A stretch of DNA of 64,000 nucleotides from assembly GCA_002483085.1 (NCBI GenBank), contig DLHF01000073.1, positions 10,703 through 74,702 of the forward strand, given 5' to 3'. This DNA comes from Ignavibacteria bacterium UBA7675. Its GTDB lineage: Bacteria; Bacteroidota; Ignavibacteria; Kapaibacteriales; UB7675. A program made the translations under genes and the position numbers. Below, piece by piece: positions 1 to 62,846 of this stretch (positions are counted from its first letter, which is position 1; each line of letters opens with the position of its first letter). Under the pieces are notes generated by a model that saw nothing but the letters and a program-made list of their open reading frames with translations, was not told the origin of the DNA and did not search any database.

Positions 1-427
1 AACGGTACTTGTCGATGTTCGGAAGCATCAGCAAACCGCCTTCGCTCCGCTGCAACACAATCTGATTACCAGTCACCGACAACAGTTTTCCCGTCAAACG
101 CTCGTTGTTCTCGCCCGTCAGTGTAATCTCGCGGTCGATGTACTTTTGCAGAATCTTGTCCAAGCTCACCAGATCGTACTGGTAGTTCTGCTCCAGCACC
201 GAGCCATTCAGCTTGATATGCACGCTCGTCGGGTCGATGAGCTGCGCCACATCCACAATCTTAATCTCCGACGTTCCCGACGCTACATTCACCGTCCGTT
301 TGTCTTTGACCACACCCAGATTGTTGTTGTACACCGTTACCGCCACCGATTTCTTTTGGCTTTCTTGTGCGTGAACGCCTTGTGTGGCGATAGTAGCTGC
401 TGCCAGCAAGAGAGCAAGTGTTTTCAT
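1..427 (-). CDS. DUF4139-family secreted protein, paralog 2 (N-terminal 142 codons only; 3' end lies beyond the left window edge)
   Basis: Minus-strand ATG (cat at 425-427). It translates to MKTLALLLAAATIATQGVHAQ (signal peptide) followed by SQKKSVAVTVYNNNLGVVKDKRTVNVASGTSEIKIV..., which is nearly identical to the N-terminus of the upstream paralog at 508..1899. Nucleotides 1..~400 are about 93-95% identical to 1477..1880. Confidence 0.6.
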   Translation of the reverse strand, partial: MKTLALLLAAATIATQGVHAQESQKKSVAVTVYNNNLGVVKDKRTVNVASGTSEIKIVDVAQLIDPTSVHIKLNGSVLEQNYQYDLVSLDKILQKYIDREITLTGENNERLTGKLLSVTGNQIVLQRSEGGLLMLPNIDKYR

Positions 428-507: not shown

Positions 508-1899
508 TTAATAGCTCGTCCGCACAGTAAACTCCAATGTCGTTTCCTTGCCCTTGGCCACAGGAATACGGAACAGCGCTGTCTGTGCGTTTTTCTTCTC
601 GTAGTTGTGTGTCTTGTTCAGGATTTCCCAGTTCAGACCTAAGTTGCGCTCCACTTCCACAACAACATCCTCGCTCTTGCGGTTCTTCAGCGTGATCTTG
701 TACGTCGCGTCGTTCACGCGTTCGCTGATGCGCTTGGAGTCCGTCATCTGGTCTTCCACGACAATGTCGAAGGCATCGCCTATGCGCAGCGACACTGTTT
801 CCTCGCGCGGCGTGTGGTCGATCATATCCTCGCCGATAAACTCGATGCTCTCGCCATCGGCTTTGTACAAGCGCACTTTACCTGCGGGCATTGGCTTGCC
901 GAGTTGGTTGCCGTCTTTGTTCTCGAACTCTACCACAACACTCACTTTTGGCTTACCGTCACCACCGCCATTGCGATACATAGGATAATATCCGCCGCCG
1001 CTTCTGTACATGTATTTTTTCGTCACAGCTACATTCGACGCCTCGAACAGCGATATTTGCTTGGTCTCGTTGTTGGCAATAGTCGTCGGGCGCTGAAGGT
1101 TGTATATGTGGTACTCGAAAAAGCTCTTTTCCTGAAACTGGTCGGGAGCCGAACTGGCAAATTCCATTTCCATGCCCTTGCGCCGGTAGTCCTGCATCGG
1201 AGCGGGTTGCTGGATAATATTCACATCACCTGCTACCAGCTTAAGCGTTGCGTTCTCATACGTTGCGCCCGAATTGTTCTCCACGCTCACCCACGAGTTC
1301 AAGTCCATCTTCGTGTCCGCAGAGTTCAGAACCGCTACGTACTCCGCGTGCCAGTTCATGCCCTGAGTTTGGTACGATACTTCCACGTCCTGATTCCCAC
1401 TCTTCGGCGCGTTCACCGTCCACACAAGCGTCGGGCGCGTCATTAAGCCTTGCGGCAGCGATTCCACGCTCAAACGATACTTGTCGATGTTCGGAAGCAT
1501 CAGCAAACCGCCTTCGCTCCGCTGTAGCACGATCTGATTGCCCGTTACAGACAACAGTTTTCCCGTCAAACGCTCGTTGTTCTCGCCCGTCAGTGTAATC
1601 TCGCGGTCGATGTACTTTTGCAGAATCTTATCCAGACTCACTAAATCGTACTGGTAGTTCTGCTCCAGCACCGAACCGTTCAGCTTAATATGCACGCTCG
1701 TCGGGTCGATGAGCTGCGCCACATCCACAATCTTAATCTCCGACGTACCCGACGCTACATTCACCGTCCGTTTGTCTTTGACCACACCCAGATTGTTGTT
1801 GTACACCGTTACCGCCACCGAGTTCTTTGCATCCTGCGCATGTGCTGTCACCGATGTTGCCACGGCTATCGCACTCAGTGCAACAATCACCTTCTTCAT
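508..1899 (-). CDS. DUF4139 (MuiA / mucoidy-inhibitor-like) domain-containing secreted protein, paralog 1
   Basis: 463-aa ORF with the signal peptide MKKVIVALSAIAVATSVTAHAQ. The overall composition (N-terminal DUF4140-like then DUF4139-like beta-rich region) is recalled from the family, not searched. Confidence 0.7.
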   Translation of the reverse strand: MKKVIVALSAIAVATSVTAHAQDAKNSVAVTVYNNNLGVVKDKRTVNVASGTSEIKIVDVAQLIDPTSVHIKLNGSVLEQNYQYDLVSLDKILQKYIDREITLTGENNERLTGKLLSVTGNQIVLQRSEGGLLMLPNIDKYRLSVESLPQGLMTRPTLVWTVNAPKSGNQDVEVSYQTQGMNWHAEYVAVLNSADTKMDLNSWVSVENNSGATYENATLKLVAGDVNIIQQPAPMQDYRRKGMEMEFASSAPDQFQEKSFFEYHIYNLQRPTTIANNETKQISLFEASNVAVTKKYMYRSGGGYYPMYRNGGGDGKPKVSVVVEFENKDGNQLGKPMPAGKVRLYKADGESIEFIGEDMIDHTPREETVSLRIGDAFDIVVEDQMTDSKRISERVNDATYKITLKNRKSEDVVVEVERNLGLNWEILNKTHNYEKKNAQTALFRIPVAKGKETTLEFTVRTSY

Positions 1900-2095: not shown

Positions 2096-2195
2096 TTGGC
2101 CTTCTGTCTTCGTCCTGCCGTTCTGTCTCTGCACCGCGCAGACGTCCGCGCATCATTCCGATGATAACTTCCATCTGCTTCGTGGCTGCCCGCCC
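2096..2195 (+). repeat. Intergenic repeat, motif-1 copy F (core TCTCTGCACCGCGCAG ... GCTTCGTGGCTGCC)
   Basis: It shares the conserved core with the copies at 8973, 22310, 34350, 50529, 57533 and 62590. Confidence 0.5.
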
Positions 2196-2461: not shown

Positions 2462-4456
2462 ATGAACCTCGGTTGCTTTTTCCAGTGGGCTCTACCTGTG
2501 CGGCGTCTTGCATCGGCAGCCTGTACAATAGCTTTGGTATCACTGTCGGTTCCGGCAGCAGCGCAAACAACGCCGCCAGCCCCCGGCCAGGAGCTTTTTG
2601 CTTTGCACGCACGCGGTGGCTTGCTGAAAAGCTGGTACACCGCCGATTTTCGGAGCTTTCAGGGCGCCATCGACTGCGGTGTTTTTACAGAAGGCGACGG
2701 GCAGGGACTCTCCTTCTCGCTTACTGGCGAGTACCCGCTGGCCAACCGGCTCTATCTCGGGCTTGGCGTGGGCTATGCACAGCGCGGCGGGAGCCTTGTC
2801 AACCCTGGCAGCTTTCCCGCACGCGACACTTCTACAGGCGAAGTGGTGACAGTTCGCACAGAGAATACTATCGAAACAACTCTGAACTATCTGGAACTCC
2901 AACCTGAAATACGCTATACACTCGTACCGGACTTCCTGCGAGGCCCGCTCCGCGCTGTAGCTGCCGTGCGGCTCGCATTCCCGATGACTTCCACCTTTGA
3001 GCAAACGGAATCCATCGTAGCGCCCGACAACGCAGCATTTACAGCAAGTGGCAGCCGCACACGCGAGCGCAAGATCGCCGCCGGAGAAATCTTCAGCAGG
3101 ACTTCGACGGGCATAGGCGCAACCGCAGGCATAGAGAACATGCTTACCATAGGTCAATCTCTCTACTTTACGCAGCAGGTGCTATTCGACTATAATTTCA
3201 GCGATCTCACAACTGATGCTTCATGGAAAACATACGGTATGAGATTCGAGGCTGGCATACGCTATGCCTTTATAAGCACGCCTCCGGCACCGCCCCAACC
3301 GCCGCCGGTACGCGATACCGTGATTATAGAGAAGCCGATTATTGAGCCCCCAGCACCGCCGCCGCCAGTAGCTGTAGTACGCATCGACAATGTGATGAAC
3401 GAAAGCACACAGTTAGAAATCGGCAACGAACTCGTGGCAACGCAGCCGCTTGTCAATGCCGTGTTTTTTGAGAAAACATCGGCGGCCATTCCCGACCGCT
3501 ATGTGCGTACCGTAGGCCGCAGCAAACCAGACGACGCAGTAGCAGCGCATCGCTATATTCTTACAGACATCGCCGAGCTCGTCCGCAAAAACCCCGAGGC
3601 ACGCATTACGCTCCAGGGAGCAACATCGGGCACAAGCGATGAACCGGCAGGGCGCGATCTGGCCGAAGCCCGTGCAGCAGCAGTACGAGAAGCTCTTATC
3701 GGGCTCGGTGTCCCAGAAAACGTGATTACCGTAAAAAGTTCGCTGTTGCCGTCCAATCCGTCTAACCAGGATTTTGAAGAAGGGCGCCAGGAAAACCGCC
3801 GTGTAGACATTGCCGTGCGCAATGCTCCGCTCCAAGAATACATAGCAAAACGCCGCTATGCTGAATTGCATTCGGTAGTGACAGGCAGCGTAACGCTCGC
3901 CAATCTGCCGTATGAAGGCGATGGATTCCTCAGGCTGAATATTGCAGATACGGTTGTGCGTGTTAGCGAATCGGGCGACTTCGCCATTCCGTTTACCCGC
4001 AGGTTAGACGCCTCACAATCGGGCGATCTGAAAGTCGTCGCTACGCTGAAACTTCCCGACCATGCGCTGCAAAGTACCGATGAAGTGCTGCTTTCGCTGG
4101 CTTCGGTACCTACTCGGGAAGTAGACCTCCAGCTCGATTCCTTCGAGCCCATCTTGCGCTTCGATTACGACAAAAGCTCGCTGAGCGATGCCAATAAGGA
4201 TCTCCTGCGGCAAATGGCAGCCGTTCTCCCAGCAGGTACGACGATTGCCATTCTGGGAAGCGCCGATGCTCTCGGAGCAGAAAAGCGCAACGCAGAGCTT
4301 TCACGGGATCGCGCGCTCAATGTCGAAAAATTTATACGCTCGATATCAGGCGATAGGTTTACGATTACATCAAGCGGAGCCGAAGCGAGGTTTCCGGATG
4401 CTACCCCGGAAGGCCGCTTCCTGAACCGCTCCATCCGCGTGCGCGCTGCGAAGTAA
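2462..4456 (+). CDS. OmpA-family outer-membrane protein with an N-terminal beta-barrel-like region, a Pro-rich linker and two C-terminal OmpA-like peptidoglycan-binding domains
   Basis: Internal Met with the signal peptide MNLGCFFQWALPVRRLASAACTIALVSLSVPAAAQ. The linker is PPAPPQPPPV...PPAPPPP. The first OmpA_C motif is ...GRQENRRVDIAVR. The second OmpA-like domain is ...AEKRNAELSRDRALNVEKFI...NRSIRVRA. Confidence 0.8.
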   Translation: MNLGCFFQWALPVRRLASAACTIALVSLSVPAAAQTTPPAPGQELFALHARGGLLKSWYTADFRSFQGAIDCGVFTEGDGQGLSFSLTGEYPLANRLYLGLGVGYAQRGGSLVNPGSFPARDTSTGEVVTVRTENTIETTLNYLELQPEIRYTLVPDFLRGPLRAVAAVRLAFPMTSTFEQTESIVAPDNAAFTASGSRTRERKIAAGEIFSRTSTGIGATAGIENMLTIGQSLYFTQQVLFDYNFSDLTTDASWKTYGMRFEAGIRYAFISTPPAPPQPPPVRDTVIIEKPIIEPPAPPPPVAVVRIDNVMNESTQLEIGNELVATQPLVNAVFFEKTSAAIPDRYVRTVGRSKPDDAVAAHRYILTDIAELVRKNPEARITLQGATSGTSDEPAGRDLAEARAAAVREALIGLGVPENVITVKSSLLPSNPSNQDFEEGRQENRRVDIAVRNAPLQEYIAKRRYAELHSVVTGSVTLANLPYEGDGFLRLNIADTVVRVSESGDFAIPFTRRLDASQSGDLKVVATLKLPDHALQSTDEVLLSLASVPTREVDLQLDSFEPILRFDYDKSSLSDANKDLLRQMAAVLPAGTTIAILGSADALGAEKRNAELSRDRALNVEKFIRSISGDRFTITSSGAEARFPDATPEGRFLNRSIRVRAAK

Positions 4457-8972: not shown

Positions 8973-9045
8973 GCGCTTCGGCCTCTGCCCTTGTGCATAT
9001 TCTCCGCACCGCGCAGCACATCCGCCGCGTAACTTTGCAGCCTTC
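8973..9045 (+). repeat. Intergenic repeat, motif-1 copy A (GCGCTTCGGCCTCTGCCC...TCTCCGCACCGCGCAGCACATCCGCCGCG...CAGCCTT)
   Basis: Shared core with the other copies; it lies 3' of the giant T9SS gene. Confidence 0.5.
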
Positions 9046-9145
9046 CATCGCTGGTTGATTGCTATGTACAGCCTCATTGTCGATGGCATTGTCGTTGCGT
9101 CGAAGCAAATGACGGTGATACGCTAACCAATCCGGCGAAACAGTC

Positions 9146-15346: not shown

Positions 15347-15412
15347 GGCTGGCACGAATACAACGATCTGGGCTGGCAGGCGATAAGCTCCAGCCAACCA
15401 CGAAGCGGCATA

Positions 15413-15484
15413 TGCGACCGGTGACAGCGACGCCCGGTAGAGCCGTCCCGTTAGGGCGGCTCGACGCAACGACGCCCGTGCCAC
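15413..15484 (+). repeat. Intergenic repeat, motif-2 copy (GCGACCGGTGACAGCGAC-[42 nt containing the GCCGTCCC-gtta-GGGCGGC hairpin]-ACGACGCCCGTGCCAC)
   Basis: The same conserved ends are present at 31246, 34478 and 62727. Confidence 0.45.
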
Positions 15485-22049: not shown

Positions 22050-22309
22050 CAACGTACACACAGAGTAACCATTACTACGGAGTTATATTGCTGTATGCAC
22101 AATTTCTTCTTTTGTCGCAAAGCGTGTTAAGCGCTTCTGATGACAATAACACAGGTAATGTCAATCGGTCTCAGTAAAAGGTCATTTTTTTTGATTTTTT
22201 CTTCGGTCGCTGTCCACATATATTTGTTGTCTATTCATCTGAAATTTTCCATAATATATACGCTGAAATTGTTTATTATTCCGTCTGTGTTGCTGCCATG
22301 ATGATAACG

Positions 22310-22450
22310 CAGACGTCTCCGGCCTTGCGCTGGGTCGCTGCACCGCGCTGCACAGCCGCCGCGTAACCGTTCGCCCCCTTTCGCAACGGGGTATTGTAAG
22401 AACGCAATACGCAGACGGGACAGCCGGTGCCCGAGAGATGCCCGTACCAC
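22310..22450 (+). repeat. Composite intergenic repeat copy G (motif-1 GGTCGCTGCACCGCGCTGCACAGCCGCCGCG... plus a degenerate motif-2 GACAGCCGGTGCCC...GCCCGTACCAC)
   Basis: It has the same order and about 100-nt spacing as the composite copies at 34350 and 62590. It lies in the leader of the ECF sigma gene. Confidence 0.45.
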
Positions 22451-31209: not shown

Positions 31210-31245
31210 AATTCGCGGAGATGGGTGGACACCACGTGGCATCTG

Positions 31246-31296
31246 ATGCGACCGGTGACAGCGACCAAACGTGCGCCGCAACGACGCCCGTGCCAC
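31246..31296 (+). repeat. Intergenic repeat, motif-2 copy (GCGACCGGTGACAGCGACC-aaacgtgcgccgca-ACGACGCCCGTGCCAC)
   Basis: Same conserved ends as the other motif-2 copies. It lies between the PP2C and hydrolase genes. Confidence 0.45.
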
Positions 31297-33007: not shown

Positions 33008-33227
33008 ACAGGTGAGCCATCATAAACAAACAACAGATGGAGGAAGCCGTACCTCATCTTTTCGCCAAACATACAATAATACAGTCGAAGTTTCAACAAA
33101 AAATGGGTCGGGTAAATACGCACATGGCGAATATAAGCCAACTATCACACATGCCCTCGCCTCCTCTTCTTGGTTCAGCCCCTCCAATTCCGGCACATTT
33201 ATTGTTCACCATACCGCGAGTAGTGTA

Positions 33228-33605
33228 ATGAAAAGCAAAAAAACAACAGCTACGCCTAAAGCTGTAGCCCTGATGTACGATGCCGGACGCGATAGCGCGC
33301 CGCGTGTTGCAGCAAAAGGCAGCGGTGAGTTGGCGAAAAAAATACTTGAGCTGGCACGCCAGCACAATATCCCCGTGCGGAGCGATCCCGATCTTATCGA
33401 GTTGCTCTCTAGGGTAGATGTGCTCGACGAAATACCAGCCGACCTTTATACGGCAGTGGCACAGATTCTTGCTTTTCTCTACGACGTCAACAAACGCAAG
33501 CTGTCTACTGAATCTCCTGAACGGAGCGACAATGCTGAAAGAAATCTATACGGCCTCGCTGGGGATGATCCCCCAGCAGATGAAATTAGAGGTGACAGCC
33601 AATAA
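33228..33605 (+). CDS. FlhB-C-terminal-domain-like protein (Bac_export_2; EscU/YscU/FlhB autocleavage-domain homolog, stand-alone)
   Basis: MKSKKTTATPKAVALMYDAGRDSAPRVAAKGSGELAKKILELARQHNIPVRSDPDLIELLSRVDVLDEIPADLYTAVAQILAFLYDV resembles FlhB C-terminal-like small proteins. The 3' end overlaps flgF by 74 nt in another frame, so the stop may be mis-assigned. Confidence 0.45.
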   Translation: MKSKKTTATPKAVALMYDAGRDSAPRVAAKGSGELAKKILELARQHNIPVRSDPDLIELLSRVDVLDEIPADLYTAVAQILAFLYDVNKRKLSTESPERSDNAERNLYGLAGDDPPADEIRGDSQ

Positions 33606-34305
33606 TATCGCCAATGCGAATACGCCCGGCTTTAAACGCGAAGGTGTGTTCGAGCGCTCGCTTATTGAAGCACGTGGTAATCTGCTGAATGTCCAAGGTA
33701 GTCCCGAAGAAGAGGACTTGCCGATGGGTCGGTACTACGACTTCTCGCAGGGCTCTTTTGAAAAGACTGATAATCCGTTCGATGCGGTGATTAACAGCGA
33801 AGGCTTTTTCCTCCTGCGCGACAACGAAGGCAAGGAATCGCTTACACGCGCCGGACACTTTACGCTGTCCTCCGATGGCTATCTGGTAACGCCCGATGGC
33901 AAACAGGTGATTGGCAGCGAAGGCCCTCTGCAACTGCGCGATGGCACGGAAAATACCGACGAACCGCATCAAAACCACTTCGAACTGCGAATTCGCGAAA
34001 CAGGCGAGGTGTTTGTGAACGAACGCGAAGTCGGCAAAATGATGGTAGTGACTGTCGATGAACCGCAAGCCCTCGAACGCTCATCGGCTACGCAGTTCCA
34101 GCTCAAAGACGATGATGTCTACACTCCCCTCGCCGATGAAAAACTCAACATCCGGCAAGGCTATGTAGAGAGTTCCAATGTGAATATTATTAGCGAAATG
34201 GTGAATATGATCCAGTTGCAGCGCTCCTTTGAGCTCGGGCAACGCGTGATTACCACCAATGATAATACGATTGATCGCAGTTTGGAAGTCGGGCGCTTTA
34301 CCTAA
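33532..34305 (+). CDS. flgF: Flagellar basal-body rod protein FlgF (proximal rod)
   Basis: The N-terminus is MLKEIYTASLGMIPQQMKLEVTANNIANANTPGFKR. The C-terminus is ...ESSNVNIISEMVNMIQLQRSFE (conserved rod-protein ends). Confidence 0.75.
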   Translation: MLKEIYTASLGMIPQQMKLEVTANNIANANTPGFKREGVFERSLIEARGNLLNVQGSPEEEDLPMGRYYDFSQGSFEKTDNPFDAVINSEGFFLLRDNEGKESLTRAGHFTLSSDGYLVTPDGKQVIGSEGPLQLRDGTENTDEPHQNHFELRIRETGEVFVNEREVGKMMVVTVDEPQALERSSATQFQLKDDDVYTPLADEKLNIRQGYVESSNVNIISEMVNMIQLQRSFELGQRVITTNDNTIDRSLEVGRFT

Positions 34306-34349
34306 AAGCAGGCGCACGCAACACAAAAAAGCTGATATGGGTGGCATTC

Positions 34350-34526
34350 GGTCTTCGATCTTGCTGTTGTCTCCGCACCGCGCGGCAACGCCGCTGCGTG
34401 GTTGTGCTCCCCATACCGCATGAATATGGCGACAGCATATAACCGGCGGCTGGCTTATGAACAACACGACACGGCTCGTGCGACCGGCGACAGCGACCGG
34501 GCTTGCGGACAACACGCCCGTGCCAC
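34350..34526 (+). repeat. Composite intergenic repeat copy E (motif-1 ...TGTCTCCGCACCGCGCGGCAACGCCGCTGCGTGG..., then ACGGCTCGTGCGACCGGCGACAGCGACC...ACACGCCCGTGCCAC) inside the flgF-flgG spacer
   Basis: It matches the order and spacing of the copies at 62590..62783 and 22310..22450. Confidence 0.5.
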
Positions 34527-34588
34527 GCAGTCTTCGCAATTAACAGAGCACTGCTTTGGCAAAACAGTACACGCGATAGGAATACTTT

Positions 34589-35380
34589 ATGGATAAAACA
34601 CTGATGACCGCTGCCACTGGCCTTTCGGCACAGCAGCGATATGTGGAGATTATCTCCAACAACCTTGCAAACGTGAACACGACGGGGTTTAAGAAAATCA
34701 GACCTGAGTTCCAGGATTTGATGTACGAAACTCTTCGCCCTGCAGGTAACACGCAGCGCAGCGGCGCCGAAGCGACCAACGAGGTACAGATCGGTGGCGG
34801 TACCGAGCTTGTGTCCACAACAAAACAATTCTCGCAGGGCGATATTCAGCCTACGAACAACCCGCTCGACATGGCAGTAAACGGCGAGGGATTTTTTATC
34901 ATCCGCCGCCCCGACAACACATTTGCCTATACACGCGATGGTTCGTTCCAAGTAGATAGCACGGGGCAAATCGTAACATCGCAGGGCTATGTGCTCGAAC
35001 CGGGCATTACCGTGCCCGACGACGCCGTGGAAGTAAAAATTTCGCGCGATGGCATTGTGGGCATTCGCACGGCGGCAGATGCAGAAGAACAGCAAATCGG
35101 CCAGATCGAGCTCGCGCGCTTTATCAACCCAGCAGGGCTGCGTGCGCTTGGCGACAACCTGCTTGAAGAAACAAGCGCCTCCGGGCAAGCTGCTTTCGAG
35201 CAGCCGGGCTCGAACAACACGGGCGATGTCATACAAGCCAGCCTCGAAAATTCTAATGTCGACCTCGTGGAAGAAATGGTGAATATGATTATAGCACAGC
35301 GCGCCTACGAGCTCAACTCGAAATCGGTGCGTACAGCGGAAGATATTCTTACAACGGCGACCAATCTCAAGCGCGGATAA
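34589..35380 (+). CDS. flgG: Flagellar basal-body rod protein FlgG (distal rod)
   Basis: MDKTLMTAATGLSAQQRYVEIISNNLANVNTTGFKK...NVDLVEEMVNMIIAQRAYELNSK matches the FlgG family. Confidence 0.85.
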   Translation: MDKTLMTAATGLSAQQRYVEIISNNLANVNTTGFKKIRPEFQDLMYETLRPAGNTQRSGAEATNEVQIGGGTELVSTTKQFSQGDIQPTNNPLDMAVNGEGFFIIRRPDNTFAYTRDGSFQVDSTGQIVTSQGYVLEPGITVPDDAVEVKISRDGIVGIRTAADAEEQQIGQIELARFINPAGLRALGDNLLEETSASGQAAFEQPGSNNTGDVIQASLENSNVDLVEEMVNMIIAQRAYELNSKSVRTAEDILTTATNLKRG

Positions 35381-37962: not shown

Positions 37963-37988
37963 CGCCGCTGCACGGCGGCAAAGGCCGA

Positions 37989-38018
37989 AGAACACGCCCG
38001 GGATGTGCGACCGGTGAC
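37989..38018 (+). repeat. Fragment of the motif-2 repeat (ACACGCCCGGGATGTGCGACCGGTGACAAG)
   Basis: A partial match to the motif-2 ends in the flgI-flgJ spacer. Confidence 0.3.
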
Positions 38019-38077
38019 AAGAAGAACGCAATAACAAAGACGCCCGAACCCCAAATGCCCAACAACGCAACAGCAGT

Positions 38078-43417: not shown

Positions 43418-43495
43418 GTGGTCGAACATTTGAGAATAGAAGGCATCATACACCTGCATCAGCGCGAGAATATGCGATGAGAGCCGAACAATCAA

Positions 43496-43580
43496 TCACG
43501 CAGCGGGCGTCCTGGCATCGTTCTTACGATAACGGTAACGCGGTGCGGAGACCAGAGCAAGGACAGAGGCCGAAGCGCGT
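43496..43580 (-). repeat. Intergenic repeat, motif-1 copy H in reverse orientation (minus strand: GCGCTTCGGCCTCTGTCC...GGTCTCCGCACCGCG...CCGCTGCGTG)
   Basis: It was read as the reverse complement of 43496..43580. It is the only reverse-orientation copy I detected. Confidence 0.45.
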
Positions 43581-46275: not shown

Positions 46276-46494
46276 TCAGCACCTTCAGTAATGTATAGAG
46301 GAGACTCTTGCTCAGCGTTTATTCGGCATACGACACCGAACAGCATGCAAAAATATTAAAATTCACAGCAGCCACCAAATTCCGTCTGTTTATTATAGCA
46401 CAACAGTGCTATCAAAACACAGCGGGATGCTCCTTTCGGAACACCCCGCGATAAGAATTTTTCCACGAATTCGCGACAGAAGAGAAGCCCAGTA

Positions 46495-46890
46495 TTAGGG
46501 GCGCTGGGGTTTCTTAGCCGTTGTGTTCGTAGGGCTTTCGGTTTTCACCGGCTCGTTGGTCGTCGGTGCAGCCGTGCTTGTATTGTCTTCGCGCTGCGGC
46601 TTTTTCGTACCCGTATTTCCGTCAGGACTGGTATGCATTTCCTTATTTGTCGACTGGGTTTTGGTACCTTTGCGACCGCTTGCTGCTTTTCCAGAGTCCG
46701 GATCCATTACTTTGACTTCTGTACCTGTGCCTGCCGTATCAATCACAAGTGTGTCTACATTAGCCGGAGGCATGAGGGTATCAACAACTGCTGGCTCCTG
46801 TTCGGGCACTTCTTCTTTTTTTTCGCAACTTGTGAAAGAAATAGTACCGACTACAAGAAATGCTGTCAGTGGCATGATAAGGCGTTTCAT
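46495..46890 (-). CDS. Small low-complexity lipoprotein (hypothetical)
   Basis: MKRLIMPLTAFLVVGTISFTSC has a lipobox. The remainder is a T/K/P/E-rich, disordered-looking sequence. Confidence 0.4.
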   Translation of the reverse strand: MKRLIMPLTAFLVVGTISFTSCEKKEEVPEQEPAVVDTLMPPANVDTLVIDTAGTGTEVKVMDPDSGKAASGRKGTKTQSTNKEMHTSPDGNTGTKKPQREDNTSTAAPTTNEPVKTESPTNTTAKKPQRP

Positions 46891-47217
46891 ACTCGTATCC
46901 TTGCTGGATATGGAAAATGTTATTTAATGAGCTTATTACACGCAGATTTTCGGCAATTTACAACAGCATGTTCCTGAAAATCAAGCAGTTGCACACAGAT
47001 GACAAGTTTTTAACTAACAGTTCATTCAAAGGTTGCATCGCTTTTGCCTAGCTCCCTTCTGCTGCACCGCCGATAACACGCCGATGTAATGAAAATGTTA
47101 CGTCCGTATTATGCTGTGTTGATGCAGTCCCGCCGCCGAATTTCCTTTTCATATCAGCGGGAAAATTTGCAGATTGGCAGCTAATTACGGTCGTAGTGTT
47201 TCCCCGAACAACAGAGC

Positions 47218-50528: not shown

Positions 50529-50607
50529 AGCGCTTCTGTCTCCGCTCTTGCTACGTGTCTCTGCACCGCGCAGCACCTCCGCTTCGTGGCTATTCAAGCC
50601 TAACCGC
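50529..50607 (+). repeat. Intergenic repeat, motif-1 copy D (GCGCTTCTGTCTCCGC...TCTCTGCACCGCGCAGCACCTCCGCTTCGTGGCTATTCAAGCCT)
   Basis: Shared core with the other copies. Confidence 0.5.
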
Positions 50608-50657
50608 TTATGCTCTACTGCCGCCCGATCGCTGCGATATGGTATAGTAAATTACAG

Positions 50658-50684
50658 CAGAAGCCCCGAAATTCCGGGGCTTCT
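50658..50684. terminator. Hairpin between convergent genes (CAGAAGCCCCG-aaatt-CGGGGCTTCTG) without a clear U-tract
   Basis: A perfect stem of 11 bp. The flanks are only weakly T-rich on the minus strand. Confidence 0.3.
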
Positions 50685-57532: not shown

Positions 57533-57634
57533 TCGCTTCGGCCTCTGCCCAGAGGTGGCTTTCAAGCCACCTCTACGGTATGTCTCTGCACCGCGCTGCA
57601 CGACCCGCCGCGTGGCTGTTCAGCCTTTCACCGC
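57533..57634 (+). repeat. Intergenic repeat, motif-1 copy B (TCGCTTCGGCCTCTGCCC-AGAGGTGGC-tttcaa-GCCACCTCT...TCTCTGCACCGCGCTGCACGACCCGCCGCGTGGCTGTTCAGCCTT)
   Basis: The shared core plus an internal perfect 9-bp hairpin. It lies between the MTase (+) and FtsX (-) genes. Confidence 0.5.
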
Positions 57635-57656
57635 ATATCATCCACCAAACTATCTA

Positions 57657-62211: not shown

Positions 62212-62589
62212 AATTCACTCTTTCGGTATAGATAAAGACAGTGTTTAGAGCCATCGCCCATATAAGCACCGCTAGGTTTCCATGTATCGGTACAGTCACA
62301 AACACCGAAATTACACGCTCTTTTTCTTACAACCAACACTCTATTCATTTGGCGGCTCTCATTGTCCATTTTGGATAAGAACTGTCGCTATTATCAGCAA
62401 TACCTACCACCATTGCAACGAAATCGCCACGAATACCGCAAATATAAAACGGATTCGATACAATTACAATGACAATCTACTGATGTATATGTTTAGCGAA
62501 TTGGTCAAAAATACAGAGCTCATCGGCTGGCAAAGCATATACGCACTTTTTGCAAATAGATTCATTATACCCTATCTCGGTGGTGATCA

Positions 62590-62783
62590 GCGCGCTTCTG
62601 CCTCCGCCCATACGCTTGGCCTCCGCACCGCGCTGCACACCCGCCTCGTGGCTACCCGTTCCGTCCTTCGCCTCTTATTTTCCTGCAAATGCTCTGCAAA
62701 GCGCACGGCGTTTGGCCAACCGCAAAGCGGCTCGTGCGACCGGTGACAGCGACCAGACGGGCGCCACAGCGACGCCCGTGCCA
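62590..62783 (+). repeat. Composite intergenic repeat copy C (motif-1 GCGCTTCTGCCTCCGCCC...CCTCCGCACCGCGCTGCACACCCGCCTCGTGGCT..., then ...AGCGGCTCGTGCGACCGGTGACAGCGACC-agacgggcgccacagcg-ACGCCCGTGCCAC)
   Basis: A full-length reference copy of the composite element. Confidence 0.5.
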
Positions 62784-62846
62784 CTCGTTGCTCTGTGATG
62801 ATACTCGCCTTTCTATCAGCTTCCTATTTTTCCATCGTCGTAGTTA

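Follow-up and report, generated by a model that had tools for sequence, protein, structure and literature searches.

A lineage-specific REPIN-like palindromic repeat in the flgF-flgG spacer of an Ignavibacteria bacterium, probably a passenger of the flagellar operon

The window analysed here is a stretch of 64,000 nucleotides from Ignavibacteria bacterium UBA7675 (contig DLHF01000073.1). It contains a flagellar cluster for which the Pfam matches give the order short flhB-like ORF, flgF, flgG, flgA, flgH and flgI, where flgF and flgG encode rod proteins of the FlgE/F/G family, see Table 1. The most likely start of flgF is at 33532 (MLKEIYTASLG...); the public gene call has 33580. Its stop codon ends at 34305 and the ATG of flgG is found at 34589, leaving a gap of 283 bp (34306-34588) between the two genes. 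The named FlgF homologues nearest to the window are ~50% identical and belong to MAGs of Ignavibacteria, Chlorobi and Bacteroidota. A T9SS sorting domain is also encoded in the window, in keeping with this group.

Upstream of the cluster there is a sigma-54-like motif, which is kept in the relatives, as CGGCACATTTATTGC in L003 and as TGGCACAyTCCTTGT in both L066 and L007. Judged from this match, the motif is likely the promoter of the operon. Since the conserved motif lies upstream of the whole operon, flgF, flgG and the DNA between them are most likely co-transcribed as one mRNA.

The greater part of the gap, 183 of the 283 bp, is a complete copy of an interspersed repeat in the orientation of the operon, referred to as copy E (34344-34526). 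It is flanked by unique sequence on both sides. The 3' unique part contains a small hairpin (34548-34570), which is unpaired in the minimum-energy fold of the spacer, and, 7 nt ahead of the flgG ATG, a Shine-Dalgarno-like AGGA (34578-34581). Similarity of the spacer to at least nine other sites in the window was detected by repeat finding and blastn. An HMM made from four copies only, all from an unrelated metagenome, matches the spacer twice, at 34353-34435 (E 3e-7) and 34440-34526 (E 1.2e-7), and a covariance model matches 34363-34526 with 38.4 bits (E 1e-8). The terminal 12-mer GTGGCACGGGCG occurs seven times at one mismatch or less, where 0.39 occurrences are expected. These three results bear out the initial annotation, according to which the spacer of 283 bp carries a full, operon-oriented copy of a repeat. 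The match between the two arms of copy E is among the weaker ones of the family, with a score of 7 compared with 13-14 for the metagenome copies L059 and L061.

Table 1. The flgF-flgG locus and the copies of the repeat in the window (position 1 is the first nucleotide of the window).
Feature	Position	Strand	Remarks
Sigma-54-like motif CGGCACATTTATTGT	33191..33205	+	consensus match only; ~23 nt upstream of the flhB-like ORF; outside the repeat
flgF, proximal rod protein	33532..34305	+	Pfam Flg_bb_rod, LlgE_F_G_D1, Flg_bbr_C; translation; homologues
Unique 5' part of the spacer, 38 nt	34306..34343	+	without counterpart in the rest of the window
Copy E, 5' tail GCATTCGGTCTTCGATCTTG	34344..34363	+	family consensus GCGCTTCGGCCTCYGCCCTTG; left-end alignment; HMM match
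Copy E, arm A, core TCTCCGCACCGCGCGGCAACGCCGCTGCGTGG	34364..34402	+	base-paired to arm B when the minus strand is folded
Copy E, expanded apex, ~59 nt, AACCGGCGG-type motif	34403..34461	+	missing from the compact copies L054, L059-L061 and 22307-22450
Copy E, arm B (..CACGGCTCGTGCGACCGGCGACAGCGAC)	34462..34497	+	imperfect reverse complement of arm A
Copy E, small hairpin CGGGC..GCCCG followed by the conserved end TGCCAC	34498..34526	+	on the minus strand GTGG-CA-hairpin
Unique 3' part of the spacer	34527..34588	+	sequence
flgG, distal rod protein	34589..35380	+	Pfam; translation
Remnant, tail and start of arm A	2101..2143	+	weak HMM match, E 0.026
Tail, arm A and degenerate arm B	8973..9121	+	between stop codon and terminator
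Arm B and enlarged terminal hairpin	15378..15484	+	convergent spacer
Full compact, diverged copy	22307..22450	+	divergent spacer, upstream of a gene for an ECF sigma factor; HMM positions 4-134, E 5.7e-11
Arm B and terminal hairpin only	31222..31296	+	between SpoIIE-like and abhydrolase genes (both minus); orthologous copy in L002 and L003
Decayed arm B and end	~37985..38060	+	flgI-SLT spacer; weak HMM match 38001-38020
Tail and arm A	43483..43578	-	only minus-strand copy of the window
Tail and arm A	50530..50667	+	between stop codon and terminator
Tail and arm A, extra perfect hairpin nested in the tail	57535..57640	+	
Full copy, expanded apex	62592..62784	+	between two minus-strand genes, thus antisense

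The compact unit of the family is ~135 nt long and consists of a 5' tail, two arms separated by a variable apex, and a terminal hairpin that leads to the end ...GCCCGTGCCAC. The tail is ~27 nt and begins GCGCTTCGGCCTCYGCCCTTG.., while the arms are ~35 nt each and imperfect reverse complements of each other, with arm A being GGTCTCTGCACCGCGCWGCACAGCCGCCGCGTGG and arm B CCGCAGCGG....TGCGACCGGTGACAGCGACC. Behind arm B follows the small hairpin CGGrCG..CGCCCG and then the sharply conserved TGCCAC; on the minus strand this reads GTGG-CA-hairpin. Sixteen copies show a sharp right boundary. In the expanded copies (34344-34526, 62592-62784, L055 and L062) the apex of the long hairpin holds 60-110 nt of extra DNA, which is often rich in AACCGGC-like motifs.

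The initial annotation described the repeat as composite. That it is a repeat stands; it is, however, a single unit with a variable middle, as can be seen from the compact copies. When metagenomes were scanned for an arm-B pattern, a single JGI sample gave all the matches, on nine short contigs, and in four of these nine, as well as in the window copy at 22307-22450, the two parts named earlier as modules are directly contiguous. The latter copy is recognised by the covariance model with 99.5 bits, although it is itself part of the seed of the model. Two independent modules A and B are thus ruled out, both by the contiguous compact copies and by the spacer between flgI and SLT, where A-only and B-only copies are leftovers at one orthologous site. 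Here, arm A is found in L004, an intact arm B in L064, and a decayed arm B in the window. Since different halves survive in different lineages, the single-arm copies are best read as decay products, and the pattern in this spacer fits differential decay of one old full insertion. The window's copy in this spacer (~37985..38060) is a second, older insertion into the flagellar cluster. An attC site, a CRISPR and a coding remnant were dropped on anatomy alone, as the repeat is without arrays, GTTRRRY ends or a consistent reading frame.

In the 64-kb window there are 10-11 copies, about one per 6 kb. The ten clear copies all lie inside intergenic DNA, which makes up 11.5% of the window, and they occupy five of the seven convergent spacers, two of the seven divergent ones and three of the 31 tandem ones. 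Their neighbours in the window are housekeeping genes (DNA ligase, BshC, ferritin, ABC transporters, a DNA methylase and flagellar genes), and the same is true of the genes beside the metagenome copies, for example Ddl, RuvA and an AlgH-like protein. With respect to these unrelated genes, copies are found in sense and in antisense orientation as well as in 3' regions. Nine of the ten window copies are on the plus strand, and GC skew, which is a proxy only for the direction of replication, is negative across the whole window. When independent sites of the relatives are included, the ratio of orientations falls to ~12:4. The bias may be taken as a lead, and as a lead only, for a mechanism that involves a single strand.

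Relatives with an FlgF identity of down to ~67% (L002-L008, L064 and L066) also have the family, and it is absent from the 20 kb of L065, whose FlgF is 55% identical. A scan of viral contigs gave no family match, and the scan of a genome collection with a 20-base arm-A pattern gave chance matches only, in G+C-rich genomes. The assemblies of several relatives break in or beside the repeat (L003, L063, L068 and probably L007/L008). The family appears to be undescribed and would be a new one of the general REPIN/ERIC kind.

The relatives also reveal the history of the flgF-flgG site. L063, from the same strain (FlgF 100% identical), matches the window identically up to the point inside arm B where its contig ends. 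In L002 (87%) the spacer is 195 bp, with the tail and arm A kept and the apex and most of arm B lost, while L003 and L064 (84%) have arm-like sequence in a spacer of more than 200 nt where the assembly is broken. No repeat is found in L004 (79%, spacer 79 bp), L066 (71%, 97 bp), L005 and L006 (68%, 81 bp) or L065 (55%, 19 bp), and none of these short spacers has a model match to it. Subtracting the 183-bp element from the spacer of the window leaves 100 bp, i.e. close to the 79-97 bp of repeat-free relatives. Long spacers exist only in the closest relatives, together with the repeat, and the same long spacer without it was seen in none of those compared.

This comparison of spacer sequences confirms copy E as an insertion into an ordinary spacer of ~100 bp, as the initial annotation had proposed. 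Its premise that flgF and flgG are normally adjacent holds for the 19 bp of L065, but not for the nearer repeat-free relatives with 79-97 bp, nor for E. coli K-12 with 171 bp. The most economical history would be a single insertion in the ancestor shared with those relatives whose FlgF is at least 84% identical, followed by decay. Other spacers of the flagellar cluster are colonised in other relatives, and the occupancy of a given spacer varies between them. As the clade already had an flgF-flgG spacer of ~80-100 nt, the insertion did not break translational coupling.

Orthologous copies are well conserved. For example, the arm-B copy at 31219..31296 is 88% identical to its orthologue in L003, compared with 63-75% for the flanking coding DNA, and the identity drops to 26% just past ...GTGCCAC. 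This suggests that orthologous copies are kept better than free decay would give, either by constraint or by gene conversion.

Whether the arms pair is a separate matter. Both the long arm-arm hairpin and the small one are predicted by RNAalifold for either strand, with -35.0 kcal/mol for the complementary strand vs -21.7 kcal/mol for the strand as written. In an alignment fitted to the model, which leans towards structure, 85% of the cells are paired vs 78% in shuffles, and double changes are found at 23 pairs vs 11.7 expected. However, in a test that is independent of the alignment, the mean complementarity of an arm A to its own arm B is 9.2 and to the arm B of other copies 8.2 (permutation p = 0.11). 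As this difference is not significant, covariation or selected pairing is not claimed. In 13 of 16 copies, folding of the complementary strand gives the more stable terminal hairpin (in sum -238.7 vs -193.4 kcal/mol), because A-C mismatches of the plus strand there become G-T/G-U wobbles. Its variable side carries G-to-A changes. Such a strand bias would fit folding of one strand, or a side of the stem that is free to vary.

The conservation can be read in favour of a family that is beneficial to the host, i.e. domesticated and kept by selection as DNA that a nucleoid, gyrase-like or regulatory protein binds, or as structural DNA at gene ends. The sequence of orthologous copies is better kept than that of the non-coding DNA beside them and no less well than that of coding DNA, the family persists in the clade to ~67% FlgF identity, the conserved blocks have sharp boundaries and convergent spacers are strongly preferred. 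However, many copies are half elements or heavily decayed, the occupied spacers differ between relatives, the complementarity of the arms is not maintained copy by copy, and gene conversion among copies would explain the conservation equally well. We regard a domesticated family as improbable.

About as doubtful is a role in cis in the flagellar mRNA, where copy E, by analogy, would be a processing site, a barrier to 3' exonucleases or a partial attenuator that uncouples flgF and flgG. REP and ERIC elements act as such stem-loops in some enterobacterial operons. Copy E is very probably transcribed, given its sense orientation and the sigma-54-like promoter upstream, its arms can pair, and its tail and arm A have been kept in L002 and L003/L064 at about the level of coding DNA. 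REPs are also described in a published survey as plausibly functioning at the RNA level (PMC3733652). The folding results, however, do not favour such a role. No stable RNA or DNA structure was found in copy E or the spacer on either strand, with z-scores ranging from -0.26 to +1.5: for copy E itself, the RNA parameters give -0.24 and +0.59 and the DNA parameters -0.26 and +0.20, i.e. it folds no better than shuffles, and the whole spacer folds worse than shuffled sequence (+1.3 and +1.5). The strand that pairs better is antisense to the operon, the partner arm has been lost in L002, and the spacers of 79-97 nt in repeat-free relatives, together with the separate ribosome-binding site of flgG, leave no coupling to break.

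For comparison, the z-scores are -0.08 to -1.8 for the copies at 22307 and 62592 and +0.3 to -2.8 for the young compact copies of the metagenome. In this comparison, which had been suggested as a check, the fold of copy E shows nothing special. The attenuation site that had been considered fares no better, as the plus strand of the spacer (34306-34588) has neither a terminator-like site nor a U-tract terminator.

Far less probable still is that the repeat provides an internal promoter for flgG-flgA-flgH-flgI or an sRNA expressed with the flagellar regulon, both of which the initial annotation had offered: the element does lie upstream of flgG, and its right end holds TGGCAC, the -24 half of a sigma-54 site, but on the opposite strand; the plus strand of the spacer has no sigma-70-like promoter and no sigma-54-like motif at up to two mismatches (in a scan by sigma-70 and sigma-54 consensus); the element is G+C-rich, no copy has a shared promoter before it or a terminator after it, and copies are found in every orientation to genes. 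A sigma-54 promoter in the TGGCAC end was rejected, as neither copy E nor the family consensus has the -12 GC in its proper place on the minus strand, the strand is opposite to flgG, and there is no enrichment across the window (76 sigma-54-like matches vs 79 expected). Rfam gave no match in the window at gathering thresholds and none on the compact copies, and its sole match in the spacer is at chance level (15.6 bits vs 100). The regulatory readings of copy E are thus unsupported; a mild effect on the mRNA is possible.

We suggest that copy E is probably a decaying, co-transcribed passenger, one copy of a lineage-specific REP/REPIN-like palindromic repeat in a sigma-54-type flagellar operon. 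A spacer of ~100 bp would have received a non-coding, imperfectly palindromic interspersed repeat of 183 bp, which would then be carried as a passenger in the flgF-flgG mRNA made from the sigma-54-like promoter upstream. There, it would at most form a weak stem-loop between the two cistrons. The most uncertain step is how the family spreads. It can be speculated that it moves as folded single-stranded DNA with the help of a trans-acting Y1/HUH REP-associated transposase encoded elsewhere. Mobilisation of single-stranded DNA by a Y1 transposase is the mechanism that we would place first, but tentatively and short of even confidence. As a lead towards a REP-like mechanism we count the GTGG of the complementary strand, which starts 2 nt before the foot of the hairpin. 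No transposase of any kind is found among the genes of the 64-kb window or the ORFs flanking the nine metagenome copies.

A bolder reading of the same features would be that the conserved blocks, the hairpin tolerant of G-T/G-U pairs and the GTGG foot are under selection. The family would then be a new single-stranded DNA mobile system of the FCB group with a non-canonical enzyme, or else a domesticated module, and copy E would tune the ratio of the rod proteins. We consider this unlikely.

Among the known kinds of mobile repeats, a classical MITE derived from a DDE transposon was rejected. The ends, GCGCTTCGG and CCGTGCCAC, are not inverted repeats, and the flanks of at least 12 copies are without a duplication. 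The fixed flanking tetranucleotide of IS200/IS605-type elements was not found either. Five left flanks share a loose TGATAAC/TCATAAC-like motif, and there is a weak preference for T at the other end. Compared with the PATEs of IS200/IS605, a clear subterminal hairpin is present at one end of the repeat only.

ERIC/IRU and Correia/NEMIS elements are imperfect palindromes of ~100-150 bp that are found in transcribed intergenic regions and operons. They occur as size variants that differ by internal insertions and deletions, and their co-transcription can alter mRNA processing. Correia elements have terminal inverted repeats of 26 bp and TA duplications. The repeat described here has no sequence relation to ERIC or Correia, and lacks both the terminal inverted repeats and the TA duplications of the latter.

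REP elements are scattered through the intergenic DNA of E. coli. The same intergenic distribution is described for REPs in published surveys (PMC3733652). In architecture our repeat is like REP doublets (REPINs or BIMEs) and ERIC-like elements, and it resembles the former in several ways. Its two inverted arms of ~35 nt form a long imperfect hairpin around a variable spacer, and single-arm copies are frequent. The copies are many and strictly intergenic, favouring the 3' ends of genes and convergent spacers, terminal inverted repeats and target duplications are lacking, and the family apparently persists by vertical descent in one clade.

A REP is recognised by GTAG or GTGG 0-2 nt 5' of the foot of a hairpin whose stem has 7 bp or more and whose loop has 2-5 nt (PMC6006769). 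Set against this rule, the minus strand of the repeat reads GTGG-CA-CGGGCG(TC)..., with a stem of 5-8 bp that includes G-T wobbles and a loop of 6-10 nt. There are also differences, in that GTAG is absent and the GTGG foot is on the extra terminal hairpin, at one end of the repeat and not on each arm. Besides the longer loops of 6-10 nt, an unpaired tail of 27 nt is found at the other end. The host is moreover an uncultured FCB-group bacterium and not a proteobacterium. Subclasses of REP-associated transposases are reported to be abundant in Bacteroidetes (PMC6006769).

The REPs tagged by CGTC (Di Nocera et al. 2013) come from a related host group, as they are reported also in Chlorobi and Bacteroidetes (PMC3733652). 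Their layout, as given there, is an unpaired CGTC head, a stem of 8-9 bp that starts from two A-T pairs, a loop of 4-5 nt and a CCA tail. The repeat has CGTC in its terminal hairpin and CCA in its tail. However, it differs in layout, as its stems are of G+C only, its loops measure 6-10 nt and the CGTC forms part of the stem. By analogy, the repeat would thus work like an element of the REPIN or ERIC type; identity with RAYT-dependent REPINs is not claimed.

The value of these results is mainly one of annotation, as one repeat family accounts for the length of the flgF-flgG gap and for that of several further oversized spacers in the window. The family also comes from an uncultured lineage of the FCB group, where REP-like systems have been little studied. 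The closest parallel to copy E by position is found in the flgF-flgG spacer of E. coli K-12, which holds a GTAG-type REP, GTAGGCCGGATAAGGCGTTTACGCCGCATCCGGCA. Each of 5426 E. coli genomes contains this sequence at no fewer than 40 sites. The REP and copy E are both dispersed palindromic repeats in the same intercistronic position. However, the 35-nt sequence is unrelated, as are the bacteria, and the two insertions are independent. For flagellar biology copy E would be of little consequence, and the operon can accommodate such insertions, in E. coli as well as here.

The flagellar cluster carries a second, older insertion of the repeat family, located in the flgI-SLT spacer. The remnants there differ between the loci, being a decayed arm B in the window, an arm A in the relative L004 and an intact arm B in the relative L064.

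Features of the repeat family and other elements in the window and related loci
Feature	Position	Strand	Remark
Second, older repeat-family insertion	window 37985-38060; L004 4852-4925; L064 3438-3555		flgI-SLT spacer
Orthologous arm-B copy	window 31219-31296; L002 ~400-518; L003 1066-1140		
Contig ends in or directly beside repeat-family copies	L003 end (4220-4265); L007/L008 ends; L063 end; L068 start		
Sigma-54-like motif (C/T)GGCAC-N5-TTG(T/C)	window 33191-33205	+	conserved
Near-perfect hairpin CAGAGGTGGCTTTCAAGCCACCTCT	window 57551-57582		nested in 5' tail of repeat copy 57535-57640
300-nt direct repeat	window 1-300 and 1473-1772		94% identity

At the orthologous arm-B copy, the window and the relative L003 share 88% identity, compared with 63-75% for the flanking coding DNA, and the DNA immediately beyond the copy is unalignable between the two. 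Either constraint or gene conversion may account for this. In L002, this copy has an additional hairpin of ~50 nt within the terminal loop.

Short-read assemblies of the window's clade are fragmented by the repeat family. The break points in related assemblies lie 12-46 nt past flgF or within arm B, and the terminus of L003 is also a tandem duplication, with ATTGTTCTGTGGAAG present twice.

The sigma-54-like motif is found ~23 nt 5' of the start of the flhB-like ORF that precedes flgF, and likewise 5' of this ORF in the relatives L003, L066 and L007. Its conservation at this position suggests, from sequence, that the operon flhB'-flgF-flgG... is sigma-54 dependent in the FCB-group lineage of the window.

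The hairpin CAGAGGTGGCTTTCAAGCCACCTCT may be part of another small element. Arm-B copies in the metagenome Ga0196964 (L055-L058) are adjoined, in both orientations, by members of a different repeat family, GTCGCGACAYGGCGCTACG...GCAGCACCGCGTCGCGAC, of which none was found in the 64,000 nt of the window. The direct repeat at the start of the window overlaps a DUF4139 gene (508-1899), and therefore probably represents tandem paralogues. Two non-coding spacers are unusually long: 62212-62846 (635 bp), whose length is only partly accounted for by a repeat copy (62592-62784), and 46276-47217 (942 bp), which is free of repeat-family copies.

In E. coli K-12, the flgF-flgG spacer is 171 bp long (L067, 3559-3729) and contains a canonical GTAG REP, the sequence of which occurs in at least 40 places per genome in all complete E. 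coli genomes.
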